Positions 37,688-45,142 of a stretch of 64,000 nt of DNA are shown here, one piece after another. Made by a program: the position numbers and the translations under genes. Origin of the DNA: a virus (Duplodnaviria; Caudoviricetes); IMG/VR virus record IMGVR_UViG_3300046463_000579, positions 943-64,942 of that record; one strand, 5' to 3'. The notes beneath the pieces were generated by a model. That model did no database searches. It saw only the letters and a list, made by a program, of their open reading frames with translations, and was not told where the DNA came from. The stretch's first letter is position 1, and every line of letters begins with the position of its first letter.

Positions 37688-38875
37688 ATGGCCGTCACGA
37701 TCAATTCCACCGATACGCTCGACTACACGTGGGCGAACGCCCCCGGCACGTGGGCGAGCGCGGACGCCGGCAAGCCGTGGTCCGATTTCTATCAACAAAC
37801 CGTGACGGCCACCGCGGCGGAAACGCTCGCGACGGCCGAAGCGCTCGGCAACGATTACGCCGACCAGCAAAGCGAAGCATTCGCCACCGTCGAAGCGCGC
37901 ACCAGCGCGATCGCGCCGCTCGCGCTCGAGGCTTTTGCCACCTCTGACGTGGCGATGGATCTGATGAACTGGATCCACAACACCAACGAGAATTTCGCCA
38001 CCGCGGAGCTCGACACGCGCGAGGCGGCGCAGGTGATCCTCGAGGCGGTTTCAACGCTCGAGCTGCTCGCCAATGCCTACGGCAATCAGCAGCTCGAGGC
38101 CTTCAGCACGGACGAGGATCTCGTGCCGACGACGACCTGGCTGCGCGATATCGCCGAAAGCTGGCTCACCGACGAAGGGCGGGCTTCGGCCTACATCGAC
38201 GCGCAGAGCGAGAACTTCTGGCTCACCGACGATCAGCGCGCGGCCTACACGGTCGCGCAGCTCGAGGCGTTCGGCACGACCGACTCGATCACGCCGGTTT
38301 CGCTCTGGACGCGGCAGATCGCCGAAGCGTGGGGCACGACCGACGCCGTGGTGCAGCAAACCGCGCAGGTGCTCGTCGAAGCGTGGAATACGCGCGACAT
38401 GATGCTGCGCAACGCCGGCGGGGTGATGGCCGATCTTGAACTCAGCCAGCTCGCGCTATCGCTCAACGACTTTACGAACATGATGAACGGTCACGCCCCC
38501 ACGGGCTTCGCGCCGTTTAAGGAGCTCGTCGCCGGCGACTACCTGTATCAGGACGCGATCGTGTGGCTGCGCCTGCAATCGCAGCGCAGCTCGACCGACA
38601 ACGTTTCGATCACCGCGGCCACGCTCGAGGTCGACGTGCCCGATCAATTCGACAGCGGCTCGATCGATATCCCGGCCGGCGGCAAGCGCGTCACCTACAA
38701 CCGCAAATTCAATGTCGTGCCGTTCGTGGTGGCGCAGGTGGTGGGCGGCACGCAGCTCGCCTATCCGGACATTACCGAAATCGACGAAGAAGGCTTCTTC
38801 GTTTCCTGCTTAAACATGGCGAACACCTCGCAATCGGTTGAAGGCGTGGTTTCGTGGAAGGCCAGCGGCTACTAG
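37688..38875 (+). CDS. Virion structural protein with about 11 E-x-(F/W)-x-T-x-(D/E) repeats
   Basis: EAFATVE, EAFATSD, ENFATAE, EAFSTDE, ESWLTDE, EAFGTTD, EAWGTTD etc. at 18-20 aa spacing. Confidence 0.7.
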   Translation: MAVTINSTDTLDYTWANAPGTWASADAGKPWSDFYQQTVTATAAETLATAEALGNDYADQQSEAFATVEARTSAIAPLALEAFATSDVAMDLMNWIHNTNENFATAELDTREAAQVILEAVSTLELLANAYGNQQLEAFSTDEDLVPTTTWLRDIAESWLTDEGRASAYIDAQSENFWLTDDQRAAYTVAQLEAFGTTDSITPVSLWTRQIAEAWGTTDAVVQQTAQVLVEAWNTRDMMLRNAGGVMADLELSQLALSLNDFTNMMNGHAPTGFAPFKELVAGDYLYQDAIVWLRLQSQRSSTDNVSITAATLEVDVPDQFDSGSIDIPAGGKRVTYNRKFNVVPFVVAQVVGGTQLAYPDITEIDEEGFFVSCLNMANTSQSVEGVVSWKASGY

Positions 38876-38884
38876 GAGAATTGA

Positions 38885-40441
38885 ATGTCGCAAACATGGA
38901 ATCCGATCAACGGCGGCGACAAGCTCGCGCAGAGCCGGCAGGATCTCGTCGATCGGATGGACTCGCTGAAAACGAACTTCAGCGGCACCTCGTTCCCGAC
39001 GACGAACGTGGTGCAGGGGCAATTCGCCTATCGCACCGATCTTAACCAGCTCTACCAGTGCGATATCTCGAGTCAGACACAGGTCGAATGGAAGCTGATC
39101 GCGGATCTGAATGTCGGCGTGTTCAACAAGCGCGGCGACACGATGGCGGGCTTCCTCACGCTCTACGCCGATCCCGCACAGCCGCTCCACGCGGCGACGA
39201 AGCAGTACACCGACGCCCTGTTCAATCTCGGCGTGAAGAAGGCCGGCGACACGCTCTCCGGGCCGCTCAACCTCTACCGCGATCCAGTGAACACGATGGA
39301 GCCGGCGACGAAGCGCTACGTCGATGGGCGGGGCGCTTACGTGAGCGGCGGGCCGCTCGGCGTGTCCGGAAACCTCGGCACGGGCATCGGGATCTCGCAC
39401 AACGGCTCGGGCGTGGCCGCGGGCACCTACGGCGGCAGCGGCGCGATCCCCGTTATCACGGTCGACGGCTACGGGCACGTGACGAGCATGGGGCAGGCGA
39501 GCCTCTCCCTCTCCAACTTGCTCGGCAAGTACGGCGACACGGCGAGCGAGATTTACAACAACGGGTGGTATCGCAGCAACGGCTCGACCGGTTGGTATAA
39601 CGCGTCGTTTGGCGGCGGCATTTACATGTACGAAGGCTCGACCGTTCGCGTGATGGGCGGCAAGCAATTCGCGACCGACTGGCACACGTTCCAAAGCGAC
39701 GGCCGGATCTGGACGAGCGCGTACGGCTACCTCGATCAGCGGTTCGCCGATGCTTCGGCCAATGGCGCGCTCAATAGCGTCGGTACCGGCAACGCCGGCG
39801 GCGGCAACGTGATCAACCCCGCGTCGTTCTATCTGAGCACCTCGGGCCGCCAGGTCGTGCTTAACCGGGTGTTCGGCAATTGCGCGTGCGACTGCGTGTG
39901 CTCGTGCTTCGTGGCAGGCACGCCGGTGCTGATGGCAGACGGCACGTGGAAGGCCGTCGAGCTCGTGCAGGTGGGCGATTTCGTGATGACGACCGAAGGG
40001 CCGGCCGAAGTGTGGGACTACGAGTACCCGGTGCTCGGCTCGCGCCGGCTGATGCGCTTCGAGGGCGATGAATCGGGCCTCGCATGGTCCGAAGAACACC
40101 CGGTATGGGCTCGCCGCGATGGCAAACAGTGGTGGTGGACGGCGGGCCTCGAGGCGTATCTGCACGAGGTGGCGGTCGGCCGCGCTTCGGGCCTGCTCGA
40201 TAACCGCTCAATGATGGCCGGCGACGAGGGCGTCGAATTCGCCCACATCGACGCGCTCAATGGCTTCCGCGCCGCACGCGTGGTGCCGGTCGAAGGCGCG
40301 AGCGCTTCCACCCTGCTCTATTTCCCGAAGACGCGCGGCTCACAAACCCTGATTCTCGGCTCGGGCTGGGTGTTCAGCGGCGGCATCAACGAATTCACCT
40401 ACGACTACAACCTGATCGACTGGAAGGGCCTGCCGCGATGA
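38885..40441 (+). CDS. Tail fibre 1 with CxCxCxCxC motif and C-terminal Hint domain
   Basis: KxGDT fibre repeats, ATKQY/ATKRY motifs, YNNGWYRSNG; GNCACDCVCS-CFVAGTPVLMADG..K.VE.VQVGD, SEEHP. Confidence 0.85.
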   Translation: MSQTWNPINGGDKLAQSRQDLVDRMDSLKTNFSGTSFPTTNVVQGQFAYRTDLNQLYQCDISSQTQVEWKLIADLNVGVFNKRGDTMAGFLTLYADPAQPLHAATKQYTDALFNLGVKKAGDTLSGPLNLYRDPVNTMEPATKRYVDGRGAYVSGGPLGVSGNLGTGIGISHNGSGVAAGTYGGSGAIPVITVDGYGHVTSMGQASLSLSNLLGKYGDTASEIYNNGWYRSNGSTGWYNASFGGGIYMYEGSTVRVMGGKQFATDWHTFQSDGRIWTSAYGYLDQRFADASANGALNSVGTGNAGGGNVINPASFYLSTSGRQVVLNRVFGNCACDCVCSCFVAGTPVLMADGTWKAVELVQVGDFVMTTEGPAEVWDYEYPVLGSRRLMRFEGDESGLAWSEEHPVWARRDGKQWWWTAGLEAYLHEVAVGRASGLLDNRSMMAGDEGVEFAHIDALNGFRAARVVPVEGASASTLLYFPKTRGSQTLILGSGWVFSGGINEFTYDYNLIDWKGLPR

Positions 40442-41148
40442 TTATCTGCACGCACCGCGCCGACGCAGAGGCGCACGACACCATCACCATCACGCCCACG
40501 GCCGCGGGCTACCGCATCGAGAACGCAGAGCGCGCGCTGCGCTTCGAATTCGATCTCTCGGCGGTTTCCTTCGGCCCGGACATTCTGTACCTCTCGCAGA
40601 ACGCCGCCGGCGGCATCGTGAAAACGTGGGCGTCGGAGACGGCCAACTCGCGCGACGGCCACGCGGCTGCGCACGGGCGCCAGTACGGGCAAGCCGTGGG
40701 CTCGCCCGTGTGCGCGATCGCCATCGAACCGGGCAAGGCCGCGGCGCACGTGGCGACGATCTACGGCGTGATTTCGCCCGCGCCGAACGTGGTGATCGAC
40801 AGCCAGGTCACGAGCACCGACCGGCTGCTCGATCGCAACGTGTCGGCGATGCGCCCGTTCATCGCGAAAATGTGGACGAAGAGCCGCCTGCTCGCGCAGG
40901 TGAACACGCAGGACAGCCTCGCCGCGCTCGAGCAGCAGCTCGATCTGATTACCGCGCTGCTCGCTTCCCTGTATGACCCGAAAAACCCGGCGCTGCCCGA
41001 TTGGGCGCCGGCATTCTTCGAGGCAATGGCCTCGAGCTCGAGCCTCACGCTCACCCAGCCGGCCGCGGCGATCGAGAAAGCCGGCACCTTCAAGCGCGCG
41101 CTGCGCGCCCTTCAGGCGACATACTTCAAGGCGGTGGGCCGTGGCTAA
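40438..41148 (+). CDS. Hypothetical protein coupled between fibre 1 and the radical SAM gene
   Basis: ATGA overlap; helical C-terminus DSLAALEQQLDLITALL. Confidence 0.65.
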   Translation: MIICTHRADAEAHDTITITPTAAGYRIENAERALRFEFDLSAVSFGPDILYLSQNAAGGIVKTWASETANSRDGHAAAHGRQYGQAVGSPVCAIAIEPGKAAAHVATIYGVISPAPNVVIDSQVTSTDRLLDRNVSAMRPFIAKMWTKSRLLAQVNTQDSLAALEQQLDLITALLASLYDPKNPALPDWAPAFFEAMASSSSLTLTQPAAAIEKAGTFKRALRALQATYFKAVGRG

Positions 41149-42508
41149 ATTCATCATCACCGGCCACCGCGCCGGCGAGCGCAAAACGTTCCTGTACGAC
41201 AACCTCACGAGCGAGCTGCGGCACGCGAACGGTCTGCCGGTGCAGGTGGAAGCCCTCGAGCCGCGCGAATACGCGCCCGCCACGCCGCTCGCGGGCACGC
41301 GCCCCTCTCAACCCTCGGGCAAGAGCTCGCCGGCCGTGCTGAAGGTGCAGCTCGGCCTCTCCTGCAACTATTCGTGCGACTACTGCTCGCAGCGGTTCGT
41401 GCCGCGCGCCGATGAAACGAGCGCGAAGCACGTCGACGGCTTCCTCGAGCGCGTGGTGCAGAACGTGGACCTCGCCAAGCTCAAGCGCGTCGAGTTTTGG
41501 GGTGGCGAGCCCTTCGTGTATTGGAAAACGCTCAAGCCGCTCGCGGAGCGCATGCGCGAGCTGCTGCCGGCGGTTGAATTCCTGATCATCACGAACGGCT
41601 CGCTGCTCGATCTCGGCAAAAACGAGTGGATCGACCGCATGGGCTTCGTGGTCGGGATCTCGCACGATGGCCCGGGGCAACCCGTGCGCGGCCCGGATCC
41701 GCTCGAGGACGCCGACACGCGCGCGGCGATCCTCGATCTTTACCGGCGCCTGCGCCCGCATGGGCGGATCTCGTTTAACGCCATGATGAACCGCAGCAAC
41801 ATGAGTCGCGCGGCCGTGGCAGCGTATTTCCGGGCGTTCACGGGCGACCCTGATGTGCCGATCGGCGAGGGCTCGTTTGTGGATCCGTACGACGAGGGCG
41901 GGCTCGATAACTCGCTCTCGAGCGATGACGAGGCGCTGCGCTTCCAAGGCCTCGCGCTGCGCGAGATCCGCGACGGCAGCGCGGCGAATTTCGGCATCGT
42001 GCACAGCCGGATCGCGGAGATCATCAACGCGATCGCGAACCGCCGGCCGGCGTCGGCGCTGCGCCAAAAGTGCGGCATGGACCGCGAGGACCGGCTCGCC
42101 GTGGATCTGCACGGCCGGGTGCTCACGTGCCAGAACGTGTCGGCCGCGGCACTGGCGCCGAACGGCCGCTCTCACCATATTGGTGATATCACCGATATTG
42201 CGGGTGTGCAGCTAGACACGAGCACGCACTTCGCGCACCGTGACGAGTGCCGCAAGTGCCTGCTGCTCCAACAGTGCAAGGGCACCTGCATGTTTCTCGA
42301 GGGGCATCTTTTCGATGCCTCGTGCGACAATTCGTACGCTGATCACCTCCCCTTCTTCGTTGCAGCATTCGAGTACATCACGGGCTTCACGCCGGTGTAC
42401 GTTGCCGGGCCCCAGCGGGCAGACCGGCACGAAATCTTCGGTTCGACAAATCTGCGGAACAAAAACCGGCCCGCCCGCCGGGTAATCCCGATCGTGGCGG
42501 CGGCTTAA
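41141..42508 (+). CDS. Radical SAM protein with SPASM domain
   Basis: CNYSCDYC at 41363-41386; FWGGEP; IITNGSLL; ISHDGP; SPASM KCG...VDLHGRVLTC...CRKCLLLQQCKGTC. Confidence 0.92.
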   Translation: MAKFIITGHRAGERKTFLYDNLTSELRHANGLPVQVEALEPREYAPATPLAGTRPSQPSGKSSPAVLKVQLGLSCNYSCDYCSQRFVPRADETSAKHVDGFLERVVQNVDLAKLKRVEFWGGEPFVYWKTLKPLAERMRELLPAVEFLIITNGSLLDLGKNEWIDRMGFVVGISHDGPGQPVRGPDPLEDADTRAAILDLYRRLRPHGRISFNAMMNRSNMSRAAVAAYFRAFTGDPDVPIGEGSFVDPYDEGGLDNSLSSDDEALRFQGLALREIRDGSAANFGIVHSRIAEIINAIANRRPASALRQKCGMDREDRLAVDLHGRVLTCQNVSAAALAPNGRSHHIGDITDIAGVQLDTSTHFAHRDECRKCLLLQQCKGTCMFLEGHLFDASCDNSYADHLPFFVAAFEYITGFTPVYVAGPQRADRHEIFGSTNLRNKNRPARRVIPIVAAA

Positions 42509-42529: not shown

Positions 42530-45142
42530 ATGCAAAGCTATACCGCTATCGCGCCATCGCAGACGATCACCTCGTCGCTGGCGCTGCTGCTCAATAACGA
42601 CCAGACCGCCAACAGCCAGAACAGCGGCACCGCCTTCCCCACGGCTAACCTGCTTGTGGGGATGGCGTGCTTTCGCACCGACCTGAATCAGCTCTGGCAG
42701 CTCACGACGATCACGCCGTCCGCGACCTGGCAGCTCGTGTGCGATTTCAACCAGACGCAGATCTACGCGAACGCCAGCGGGCGCGTGCTGATCGGCACGA
42801 CGACCGACGATGGTTCAACCCGGCTGCAAGTGGCGGGCTCGATCGTCGCGGCCGGCGTGATCAAGGGCATGGCCGCACAGAAGGCGATCATCGCCTCGAA
42901 TGGCAGCGGCACGGGGCAAACGTCGATGTTCTTCAACCGCGAGGGCGCGGCCACGGACGAAAAGACGTGGGAGCTCGTTCACAACTCGAGCGGCGGCTTC
43001 GCGCTGCGCTCGATCAATGACGCGTACTCGGCATCGCAGAATGCGATCTTCGTCGGGCGCCCGGCTGGCGGCGGCATCGCACTGTCGAACTTGCAGCTCA
43101 TGCCGGGCGGTGGGCGCGTGCTGATCGGCACGACGACCGACGATGGCGCGACGCTGCTGCAAGTGGCGGGTGGCACTCGCGTGGCCGGCGCGCTTCAGTT
43201 GACGCAGTTCGCGACGCCGGGGGCACCAACCGGAGTCGGATCGAGCACGGGCGGCTCTCTCGCTGCGGCGACGTGGTACGCGAAAATCGTGGCGGTGGAT
43301 TCGCTCGGCAATTTGACGCCGGTGGGCGCCGAATCTTCGGGCGTTACAACCACTGGCACCACGAGCTCGATCTCGTGGACGTGGGCGGCCGTGGCTGGCG
43401 CGGTTTCATACCGTATCTATTACAGCACCACGGCCGGCGGCGAAGCCGCCTACTACACGAGCTCGGCGAACAGCTTCACGCTCACGGCCTCGAGCGGCAC
43501 TGCGGGCACGCCTCCGACCGTCAATACCACGGGCGGGATTTTGGCCGGCGGGCCGCTCACGGTGAACGGCGGGGGGAGCTTCGGCGGCCTGCTCACGGCA
43601 AACAACGGGCTGACCGTCAGTGGCACGACGATCTTCAACAGCGGCATCAACGTGCTCGGCGGCAGTTTCGAGTTCGGCTCGACGACCGCCGCGATGACGC
43701 CGTTCATCGACTTCCACTCCTCGGGCTCGGCCAATGACTTCGACTCGCGGATCATTGCGACGGCCGGCACCGCCGGCTCGACAGGCGCGGGCAATCTCAC
43801 GTTTCAAACCGCGCAGGCCATCATCTATCACGGCTCGATGGCGCAGTTGAAGCTCTCGTCGGGCACCTACGTGCCGGTCATTCGTTCGAATCTTGCCACT
43901 AGCGCGATCGAGTTCGTCAACAGCGCCAACACCGCGGTCAACCTCACGGTGAGCGATGCGGGTGATCTGACGGCGCGGGGCACCGTCTACAGCCAGTTGG
44001 GCGGGAGCAGCTCGACCGGGGCCTTCCGCTTAACCGGTGACGTTGGGGGCGGGTTCGTAGATTGGAGCAATAACCGCAACTACGCAGTCCAGATTGACTC
44101 GCCCAACGCTGCTTCTGCTTACGGCGGCATCCGCTGGACGCGTTGGGGCGGGCGGCATGTAGCGGCAATCGACGCCTACGAAGGCGGCTCGACCAGCTCG
44201 CAGCCGTCGCTCGTGTTCCACGTCGCGAACCAGAACAATGCGTGGACGTTCAGCAACGCGGACATCACGCGCGGCGCGGGGGGTTACGTGTATGGCACGT
44301 GGAACTTCAACCCTTCCAACTACGTTTGGAAGGCCGGCGACACGATGAGCAACCCGCTCGCGGTGGTCTCCGGTGGTGACTCGAACGGCTATCAGGGGCG
44401 CCTCGGCCCCGGCTACATCAAGCTGAATGAATACAGCTACGGCGCATACGTCGACTTTGCACGCATGTCGTCCGAAGACTTCCGCTGGCGCATTCACTAC
44501 AACTTCAGCAGCGGCCAACTGGAATTCATCAGCAACGGCGGACAGACCATCGACTTCCTCTCAGACGGCAACATCTATTGCGGTGGTCGCGGCTACGTGT
44601 GGGATGCGATCAACGCGAAGTTGCCGACGAGCGGCGGCACGCTGGGTTACGTCTACCTGAACGGCGGGGGGGTAGTCGGATACCAGAACTTCGGCTACCT
44701 CAATCAAAACGGCGCATCCACCTACAGTTCCCCGACCAATAACGGCACGTTTGGCGCCATCGCTGCAAACATGATCGCGGCAAGCCAAGTCTGGGCCGTG
44801 TCGGATGAACGTCTGAAAACCGATATCGAGGATATCGCCGAAGACGAGGCGATCTCGTTCGTTCAGGAAGTCGCACCGAAGCGCTACCTGAAGGAAGGCG
44901 TGCGTGAGTGGGGCTTTGTCGCGCAGCACGTCGGTAAGGCCTTGCGCGGCAAGGGCAGCGAACTCTTGACCGTCACGCCGCGCGAAGAGCTCGAGGAACA
45001 GATCGACGAAGACGGCTTTGTCTCGCCGGCAGGCCACGCGCTGAACGTGAGCCATAACCAGATCATCCCGATCCACGCGTCCGTGCTGCGCAACCTGCTG
45101 CGCCGCATGGCTGCACTCGAAGAACTTGTCGGAGCCCACTGA
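42530..45142 (+). CDS. Tail fibre 2 with C-terminal Peptidase S74 intramolecular chaperone
   Basis: G/T/S-rich; PFIDFHSSG..NDFDSRI; KAGDTM; SDERLKTDI...WGFVAQHV. Confidence 0.88.
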   Translation: MQSYTAIAPSQTITSSLALLLNNDQTANSQNSGTAFPTANLLVGMACFRTDLNQLWQLTTITPSATWQLVCDFNQTQIYANASGRVLIGTTTDDGSTRLQVAGSIVAAGVIKGMAAQKAIIASNGSGTGQTSMFFNREGAATDEKTWELVHNSSGGFALRSINDAYSASQNAIFVGRPAGGGIALSNLQLMPGGGRVLIGTTTDDGATLLQVAGGTRVAGALQLTQFATPGAPTGVGSSTGGSLAAATWYAKIVAVDSLGNLTPVGAESSGVTTTGTTSSISWTWAAVAGAVSYRIYYSTTAGGEAAYYTSSANSFTLTASSGTAGTPPTVNTTGGILAGGPLTVNGGGSFGGLLTANNGLTVSGTTIFNSGINVLGGSFEFGSTTAAMTPFIDFHSSGSANDFDSRIIATAGTAGSTGAGNLTFQTAQAIIYHGSMAQLKLSSGTYVPVIRSNLATSAIEFVNSANTAVNLTVSDAGDLTARGTVYSQLGGSSSTGAFRLTGDVGGGFVDWSNNRNYAVQIDSPNAASAYGGIRWTRWGGRHVAAIDAYEGGSTSSQPSLVFHVANQNNAWTFSNADITRGAGGYVYGTWNFNPSNYVWKAGDTMSNPLAVVSGGDSNGYQGRLGPGYIKLNEYSYGAYVDFARMSSEDFRWRIHYNFSSGQLEFISNGGQTIDFLSDGNIYCGGRGYVWDAINAKLPTSGGTLGYVYLNGGGVVGYQNFGYLNQNGASTYSSPTNNGTFGAIAANMIAASQVWAVSDERLKTDIEDIAEDEAISFVQEVAPKRYLKEGVREWGFVAQHVGKALRGKGSELLTVTPREELEEQIDEDGFVSPAGHALNVSHNQIIPIHASVLRNLLRRMAALEELVGAH
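42779..43146 (+). repeat. 35-bp perfect direct repeat within fibre 2 (42779-42813 and 43112-43146)
   Basis: GGGCGCGTGCTGATCGGCACGACGACCGACGATGG twice, 333 bp apart. Confidence 0.9.

Follow-up and report, generated by a model that had tools for sequence, protein, structure and literature searches.

The DNA analysed here, called the window throughout, is a 64,000-nucleotide (nt) stretch of a tailed-phage genome of the class Caudoviricetes (positions 943 to 64,942 of IMG/VR record IMGVR_UViG_3300046463_000579); it takes in nearly all of the 64,942-base record, which CheckV rates as complete. It encodes a tail fibre of 518 amino acids (aa), P0001, whose last 178 residues (341-518) are, according to the predicted structure, a genuine Hint superfamily domain. 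On balance we favour the reading that this is a cleavage-only Hint domain which acts as a self-removing cap at the C-terminus of the fibre. Cleavage at the bond between Ser340 and Cys341 is likely from the conservation of the residues involved and from the comparison with Hint-less relatives, and we suggest, more tentatively, that the module is a transient assembly aid or a protective cap for the fibre tip. The evidence consists of the fold, residue conservation, the position of the domain, gene linkage and pairs of fibres with and without the domain, and from these every chemical step given below is inferred.

The original prediction had placed the domain at 39905..40441 and these coordinates proved exact, as they run from the codon of Cys341 (TGC, 39905-39907), with Ser340 just before it, to the stop codon (40439-40441). 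Block A, the block B motif WSEEHPVW and a protein terminus (...SGWVFSGGINEFTYDYNLIDWKGLPR) devoid of His-Asn, all named in the same prediction, were borne out in the sequence. The Hint fold ends at about residue 499-500, as the structural alignments cover model residues 1 to 159-165. At the position of the intein His-Asn pair the family consensus is Gly-Ala, followed by Gly at +1, and the window protein has Ser-Gly followed by Gly500; neither the block G His-Asn nor the +1 Cys, Ser or Thr of inteins is present in it. As the +1 residue is Gly, the sequence after the fold carries no splicing nucleophile; the earlier statement that there is no real C-extein was imprecise in that a family-conserved tail of about 19 residues follows the Hint fold. 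Without His-Asn and a +1 nucleophile, only the N-terminal Hint reaction would be chemically possible. The conserved Asn/Asp at domain position 162 was considered as a displaced intein Asn and was ruled out by the register, in which NGYVVGA corresponds to the intein motif NG..VHN and intein C-termini align to about residue 159.

Profile searches matched the start of the domain. Pfam Hom_end_hint (PF05203) aligned to residues 341-374 (E 1.2e-06); it scored 29.1 bits when the whole protein was scanned and 31.1 with the domain by itself, so that the gathering cut-off of 32.1 was not reached, and the match covered profile positions 1-34 of 228 only. Hint_2 (PF13403) matched the same residues at 16.5-19.2 bits, below its cut-off of 28.4, and was found at E<=0.01 in 7 of 42 family members. 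At 178 aa the domain leaves no room for a homing endonuclease.

The structure prediction of residues 341-518 that had been proposed as a check was run and returned a Hint fold, so the refuting outcome, a fold of another kind, did not arise. The AlphaFold2 (AF2) model, built from a 42-member alignment, had a mean predicted local distance difference test score (pLDDT) of 96.4, with 89 in the last block, and a predicted template modelling (TM) score of 0.91; it contains a helix insert at domain residues 82-90 that is particular to this family. Foldseek gave 35 matches in the PDB at E<=1e-3, those listed being inteins, bacterial intein-like (BIL) domains, hedgehog or Vint, and the top match was the hedgehog autoprocessing domain 1at0 (8.2e-06), followed by PI-SceI domain I, Tetrahymena BIL2 and the Prp8 intein (all at about 8e-06 to 1e-05). 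In VIA-align all of the 50 entries shown were Hint domains (Z 11-16.6), led by Tetrahymena BIL2 6y75 (Z 16.6, 140 residues aligned, root-mean-square deviation 2.5), with the Clostridium thermocellum BIL 2lwy at Z 14.1, many inteins at Z 12-14 and hedgehog 1at0 at Z 12.9. The 42-member profile searched against PDB sequences matched inteins over the N-terminal half at E 1e-9 to 1e-12 (among them PI-SceI, 1.9e-10, and the intein-containing 8w20, 5.7e-12), and its similarity to hedgehog (E 0.04-0.3) and to a BIL (E 0.13) was weak. The closest BFVD models were one from uncultured Caudovirales, named 'Hint domain containing protein' (TM 0.86), and one of a Providencia phage PSTNGR1 protein that is uncharacterised (TM 0.81). 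The counterpart in Achromobacter phage JWF is gp28 (PJWF_00028), whose Cys1 is residue 308 and whose deposited name is 'Hom_end-associated Hint family protein'. Databases thus label the Hint domain automatically and say nothing beyond that.

A phmmer search of the 178-aa domain against 1.84 billion representatives of clusters at 50% identity gave 515 matches at E<=1e-3, of which 173 reached 1e-10 and 29 reached 1e-30, numbers which put the Hint observation far beyond chance. Conservation was assessed in 108 full-length members taken from the 150 best listed matches and from word-index matches; the other listed matches were mostly multi-Hint proteins matching blocks A and B only, or fragments. 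The domain is C-terminal in all 108, with 0-77 residues after its aligned end in the 104 single-domain members, and the intein arrangement, in which the domain interrupts a host protein and its two halves are joined, was not seen. When Cys341 is counted as residue 1, block A is represented by Cys1 in 108 and Phe2 in 106 members, and block B by Ser/Thr62 (107), Glu64 (101), His65 (106) and Trp68 (106). Further conserved columns are Arg47 (106), Glu88 (102), Gly154 (105) and Tyr155 (99), and in the tail Asn/Asp162 (97), Asp167 (95), Tyr168 (100) and Trp173 (101). Cys1 is preceded by Thr in 49 members, by Ser in 35 and by Cys in 17, which together make up 101 of the 108.

PHROG families were scanned for 88 members (the window protein was scanned separately, and the three longest members were left out), of which 24 matched tail categories (tail fibre, tail collar or central fibre J), four matched only virion-structural or head families, 11 matched only families of unknown function and 49 had no match at E<=1e-5; the best-matching stretches were the N-terminal parts of the Hint proteins. 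The domain itself is 30-50% identical across phages of Achromobacter and of Providencia, a genome of Caballeronia and a Chloroflexi metagenome-assembled genome (MAG). A scan of prokaryotic contigs, one genome per species, with a 10-row alignment left 79 loci, mostly generic Hint or intein N-terminal matches, and tblastn matches spanned more than 120 query residues in six of them only: a Caballeronia prophage (L021), the Chloroflexi MAG (L022) and a Rhodospirillales MAG (L026) reached the domain end, and L038, L061 and L081 were partial. Judged from these sequences, the family is essentially viral.

The predicted cut lies at the end of an Asn-Cys ladder that runs up to the Hint domain and is the only match to the pattern (Cx)>=3C, at least three Cys-x pairs followed by Cys, in the six frames of the window. 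This ladder, and its link to a radical S-adenosylmethionine (radical-SAM)/SPASM enzyme encoded downstream, are new relative to the original prediction. The 104 single-domain members differ in what lies ahead of Cys1: a ladder no more than 25 residues away in 23 (strict in 13, loose in 10), a Pro-rich linker in 12, a Gly-rich one in 11 and another kind in 58. The neighbourhood was compared in 18 distinct Hint loci including the window, after merging of L001/L004, L008/L021, L011/L012, L013/L014 and L017/L018; some of them (L016 and L022) have little downstream DNA. A ladder precedes Cys1 in eight, namely the window, JWF, L003, L007, L010 (in two tandem genes), L013/14, L015 and L026, and all eight have a homologue of the window enzyme just downstream (tblastn E<=2e-79). 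The gene order in JWF is the same, with a fibre that carries NCNCDCNCNCS/C and the Hint domain, a 240-aa protein and an 'anaerobic sulfatase-maturating enzyme'. The other ten loci have Pro-rich, Gly-rich or other linkers, and nine of these gave no enzyme match; the tenth, L011/12, gave distant radical-SAM matches only (25-30% identity). On a FastTree phylogeny of the Hint domains the ladder changes 18 times against a shuffle mean of 21.1 (standard deviation 1.3; 16 of 500 shuffles gave 18 or fewer), and this scatter indicates that Hint and ladder are separable modules which have been combined repeatedly. At L010:4819-7881 two tandem collagen-like (GPPGPPGP) fibres, each with ladder and Hint, are followed by one radical-SAM gene, and a third ladder-Hint-enzyme set, L007, lies on the same 109-kb contig.

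Most ladder proteins next to the enzyme have no Hint domain and stop where it would cut. The enzyme has 305 relatives in IMG/VR, of which the best 80 loci were examined; 13 with too little upstream DNA were dropped, leaving 67 with at least 1500 nt upstream. A same-strand open reading frame (ORF) with a (Cx)>=3C ladder ends within 3.5 kb upstream of the enzyme in 47 of the 67, and when 769,318 bases from unrelated loci were read as a control, the same pattern gave four matches in six frames, one of them the ladder-Hint gene of L026, whose locus also has the enzyme. The ladder proteins are 84-730 aa long, and 48 of the 52 unique ones end no more than 7 aa past the ladder, typically as ...NCNCNCACDC-stop. 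In the remaining four (L108, L109, L143 and L177) the ladder is followed by a Hint domain of 161-193 aa. Their Hint domains are divergent, with a TxxH block B and sub-threshold matches only to Pfam Hint, Hom_end_hint, Vint or Hint_2, and all are without His-Asn; L108, L109 and L177 share the D-[FY]-x-Y-x-x-W type of ending seen in the window tail, and L026 ends in VDYSRW. The possibility that the enzyme belongs to the Hint domain itself was rejected in view of the locus counts given above and of the Hint-less state of most enzyme-linked ladders; from gene neighbourhoods, the enzyme is tied to the ladder rather than to the Hint domain. In several loci (L105, L136/137, L140-142, L146, L151/157, L154-156 and L172), some 2.3-3.5 kb from the locus start, three short paralogous ORFs in tandem (frames of 92-167 codons, stop to stop), each with a CNCNCNC-type ladder end, lie upstream of the radical-SAM gene and resemble the multiple precursor genes of a cluster for peptides that are ribosomally synthesised and then modified post-translationally (RiPPs).

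Presence and absence of the domain can be compared directly in closely related fibres. The 274-aa Hint-bearing protein of L109 and the 85-aa Hint-less protein of L110 are identical at 79 of 84 positions up to ...CVCGNG, after which L110 stops and L109 continues as S/CFLAGA.... At the DNA level (L109:2492-3316 against L110:4668-4925) the first 251 nt before the Hint segment are 94.8% identical, a segment of 574 nt with the Hint domain in L109 stands for 16 nt in L110, and the two are 99.6% identical over the stretch that begins in the intergenic region and runs on into the radical-SAM gene. The Hint-bearing fibre of L143 is identical to the ladder-ending fibres of L162 and L133 at 240 of 323 and 185 of 334 positions, respectively, and residues 1-305 of the window fibre have homologues among the Hint-less ladder fibres, for example that of L102 (E 3e-18).

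In the mechanism that we propose, Cys341, aided by Ser402 and His405 of block B, would attack the carbonyl of Ser340 in an N-to-S acyl shift. As splicing cannot follow without His-Asn and a +1 nucleophile, the thioester would be hydrolysed, perhaps with Glu404 as the base. A precursor of 55.8 kDa would thereby give a mature fibre of 36.0 kDa ending in ...NCACDCVCS and a Hint fragment of 19.8 kDa, and the mature end would be the same Asn-Cys ladder C-terminus that the Hint-less relatives, which form the majority, encode directly. The earlier claim that such a domain performs the N-terminal acyl shift alone agrees with the Hint fold, the strong conservation of Cys1 and of the S/TxxH motif, and the loss of the His-Asn and +1 machinery. 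In type-B BILs, which have no block G, cleavage is uncoupled from splicing, as stated in the part of PMC4031507 that deals with them. The self-removal reading thus leans on the invariant catalytic residues and on Hint-less relatives that stop where the Hint domain would cut.

Several points weigh against this reading. Orthologs identical at 79 of 84 positions do without the Hint domain, so that at least one partner protein folds without it, and the purpose of a chaperone is weakened; of the self-removing folding chaperone in the original prediction, the self-removal is supported, as most fibre relatives beside the enzyme stop at the predicted cut, but a chaperone is not a general need. A stop codon would yield the same mature protein more cheaply, which in the face of a wide and conserved family implies some added benefit, and no ladder was found by the pattern search in 20 of the 67 enzyme loci. 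The one Hint product that a stop codon cannot give is an activated C-terminus, and the upkeep of the family would be explained if the thioester were captured rather than hydrolysed, with the fibre C-terminus ligated to a Lys of another virion protein or chain, to a ladder Cys (as a thiolactone), to a small molecule or to a host surface group. Hedgehog proteins pass their thioester to cholesterol, and no explanation so far accounts for the preference for Thr, Ser or Cys before Cys1. In BIL2, the closest of the structural matches, the thioester ends up on a lysine as an isopeptide, as described in a portion of PMC8616854. We nonetheless hold capture to be decidedly unlikely, as 48 of the 52 ladder proteins next to the enzyme simply have their C-terminus encoded, the ligated form would need to be interchangeable with the unligated one between 94%-identical orthologs with and without the Hint domain, and the domain brings only its 19-aa tail and no sterol-recognition or other acceptor-binding region, with no candidate acceptor found. 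We give equally little credence to the combined form, in which a ladder cysteine, or a lysine from another chain or protein of the virion, would catch the activated ladder C-terminus and this, together with radical-SAM thioether stapling, would yield a covalently locked fibre tip.

The domain could also cleave itself and be a selfish or neutral cassette that moves by recombination at fibre 3' ends without benefit to the phage. The clean presence/absence indel between the near-identical flanks of L109 and L110, the frequent shuffling implied by the scatter of the ladder on the Hint tree and the many unrelated N-terminal partners would all suit such a cassette. It is a 178-aa mini-Hint without a homing endonuclease, however, its Hom_end_hint match being confined to the first 34 residues, and although one stop codon would delete it free of cost, the whole domain with its non-catalytic tail is conserved in at least 173 clusters, so we consider this explanation unlikely. 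Distal C-terminal domains of fibres are usually receptor binders, and the Hint domain might on that pattern stay uncleaved as a distal knob, for instance a receptor-binding or structural tip. For a binding module, however, an invariant Cys1 and a near-invariant S/TxxH are hard to explain; receptor binders diverge fast, whereas this domain keeps 30-50% identity across very different hosts and sources; and the linkers that attach it are rich in Pro, Gly or Cys, with orthologs that end at its start. A retained knob therefore has little to commend it, and cleavage at Cys341 followed by loss of the Hint domain is the reading that we prefer.

If the Hint domain is removed in this way, the ladder that it exposes is the probable business end of the fibre for the downstream enzyme. 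This protein matches Pfam Radical_SAM (33.4 bits, cut-off 29.5) and phrog_1802 (E 2e-52), and its SPASM domain matches TIGR04085 at 26.6 bits, slightly below the cut-off of 27. Its NCBIfam core matches are to thioether-forming peptide maturases, namely PapB (2.5e-13), QhpD-type, SCIFF and CcpM, all far below the equivalog cut-offs. According to part of PMC9389541, the enzyme NxxcB links Cys to the beta-carbon of Asn, and the SPASM enzyme CrpC installs thioethers on a whole Cys-rich protein, CrpA, in the account given in a section of PMC13692751. By analogy, the window enzyme plausibly makes Cys-to-Asn/Asp thioether cross-links in the ladder, and the linkage of enzyme and ladder suggests RiPP-type cross-linking of virion proteins. 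No description of radical-SAM thioether chemistry on a virion protein was found in the literature searched.

The fibre gene belongs to a siphovirus-type tail module on the plus strand, as judged from the ORF list, Pfam and PHROG, in which a GpJ-like central fibre is followed by two small ORFs, the 518-aa fibre, a 236-aa protein, the radical-SAM/SPASM enzyme and an 870-aa fibre (Table 1).

Table 1. Features of the Hint-terminated fibre and its neighbours (window coordinates; residues refer to the 518-aa fibre)
Feature	Position	Strand	Basis or remark
GpJ-like central fibre, 1416 aa	32894-37144	+	phrog_31, E 3e-130
Tail-fibre gene, 518 aa (P0001)	38885..40441	+	ORF list; PHROG tail-fibre match phrog_16641, E 2e-06
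N-terminal anchor domain, common to both fibres of the phage	38885..39112	+	BLASTP
Asn-Cys ladder, N332-S340 (NCACDCVCS)	39878..39904	+	Sequence; Cys341 continues the alternation
Hint fold, residues 341-499	39905..40381	+	AF2, Foldseek, VIA-align
Hint block A, CFVAGTPVLMADG, residues 341-353	39905..39943	+	Cys341 predicted nucleophile; S340/C341 predicted scissile bond
Hint block B, WSEEHPVW, residues 401-408 (S402, E404, H405)	40085..40108	+	Conservation
Position of intein His-Asn, here Ser498-Gly499	40376..40381	+	Register NGYVVGA against intein NG..VHN
Conserved post-Hint tail, 19 aa, GINEFTYDYNLIDWKGLPR	40382..40438	+	Column conservation
orf236, 236-aa protein between fibre and radical-SAM gene	40438..41148	+	Start overlaps fibre stop (ATGA)
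Radical-SAM/SPASM enzyme	41141..42508	+	Likely GTG start at 41141
Second fibre, 870 aa, S74 self-cleaving intramolecular chaperone at its end	42530..45142	+	Pfam, PHROG

The 518-aa fibre has relatives in Achromobacter phages 2-1 and JWF, with 36-37% identity across 94% of the query. Its N-terminal anchor (residues 3-76) aligns with residues 2-74 of the 870-aa fibre at 24 of 74 identical positions (E 7e-10), and the same N-terminus occurs in the Hint-less ladder fibres L102, L121 and L117/118. The 870-aa fibre itself matches Pfam Peptidase_S74 (28.5 bits, cut-off 22; residues 758-805) and the tail-fibre family phrog_13481 (E 1.4e-52), and the 518-aa fibre has no match to S74 (PF13884). The phage thus has two alternative fibres with a shared anchor of about 74 residues and different ends, a putatively self-processing Hint and S74, and this arrangement indicates that a removable C-terminal module is normal in this position. 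In the distal domain of the 518-aa fibre, residues 217-302 (39533-39790) give a sub-threshold match to Pfam Shufflon_N (25.2 bits, cut-off 27.5), the constant region of shufflon PilV proteins, and the motif NNGWYRSNGSTGWYN is common to this fibre and to Shewanella and Aeromonas phage fibres.

As to the other neighbours, the N-terminus of the GpJ-like ORF (residues 94-234) also matches the tail-assembly protein I family phrog_32; the two counterparts are separate genes in phage JWF, and the window ORF may be a fusion or have a mis-set start. The 395-aa protein at 37688-38875 (+) has about seven degenerate repeats with an acidic motif ..EAF.T.D..; no family match was found for it, and its C-terminal part is homologous to JWF gp27, L003 and L010. 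The product of orf236 has no match in Pfam, PHROG or NCBIfam, its Atlas features score no higher than 0.85 and the Atlas's own model has a pLDDT of 0.38. Homologues stand at the same position in JWF and L003 (28-33% identity), with partial matches in L106, L120 and L133, and the protein may assist either the fibre or the radical-SAM enzyme.

Several known systems resemble the window domain without coinciding with it. It shares its fold and blocks A and B with canonical inteins and mini-inteins (Z 12-14), but has no His-Asn, no +1 Cys, Ser or Thr and no C-extein to ligate, and it stands at the protein end rather than inside. The hedgehog Hog domain (1at0), likewise a Hint at a C-terminus, cleaves at its own Cys1 and is absent from the mature product, a cut which for the fibre is predicted. 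It differs in that its -1 residue is Gly, whereas the fibre family has Ser, Thr or Cys there; the profile similarity is weak, and the sterol-recognition region that follows the Hint fold in Hog has no counterpart in the 19 residues found here. The type-B BILs (Amitai et al. 2003, as summarised in a part of PMC4031507) are alike in having no block G and a terminal position and in cleavage without splicing, which for the fibre domain is predicted. The C. thermocellum BIL 2lwy, of type B or another BIL type, is among the structural matches. BILs, however, sit on bacterial secreted proteins, whereas the window family sits on phage tail proteins and has its own helix insert, the WSEEH block B, a D-Y-x-x-x-W tail and sub-cut-off Hint_2 matches. 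BIL2 of the Tetrahymena thermophila BUBL1 polyubiquitin locus (6y75, 6tmm), which, as proposed for the window domain, uses a thioester without classical splicing, passes it to lysine in the portion of PMC8616854 concerned. It is only 13% identical, lies between two ubiquitin-like domains and keeps its C-terminal Asn (the crystal construct is C1A-N143A), whereas the window domain is terminal and without Asn.

As a C-terminal fibre module the domain is most like the S74 chaperone (PF13884), which the phage carries behind the same anchor in its 870-aa fibre. The fold and chemistry are unrelated, since S74 acts by Ser-Lys proteolysis in a trimeric helical domain and the module described here would use the thioester of a Hint beta-fold. 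To our knowledge, self-cleaving C-terminal modules of phage fibres have so far been known from the S74 family, and we know of no virus particle for which either thioester capture or radical-SAM stapling has been reported. In endosialidase-type tailspikes and T5 pb1 the S74 module is removed autocatalytically after assembly, as described in part of PMC4690869. A Hint-terminated phage fibre was not found described in the literature searched, which included the RBPseg fibre atlas and left subscription journals mostly outside; the phiCbK and CBB papers mention inteins only in terminase and ribonucleotide reductase. If the favoured reading is true, a second self-cleaving fibre module, unrelated to S74 and built on intein/hedgehog chemistry, would broaden the view of the ways in which phages mature their host-binding organelles, and a large phage-borne cleavage-only branch, with a possible small self-removing tag, would be added to the Hint superfamily. 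The comparison with Hint-less relatives points to the Asn-Cys ladder as the mature fibre C-terminus, and hence as the end on which a radical-SAM/SPASM enzyme widespread in phages is likely to act. The window domain therefore belongs to a Hint family, cleavage-only by its conserved and missing residues, that is found in a new setting and that in a subset of phages including this one is linked to an undescribed radical-SAM/ladder system.

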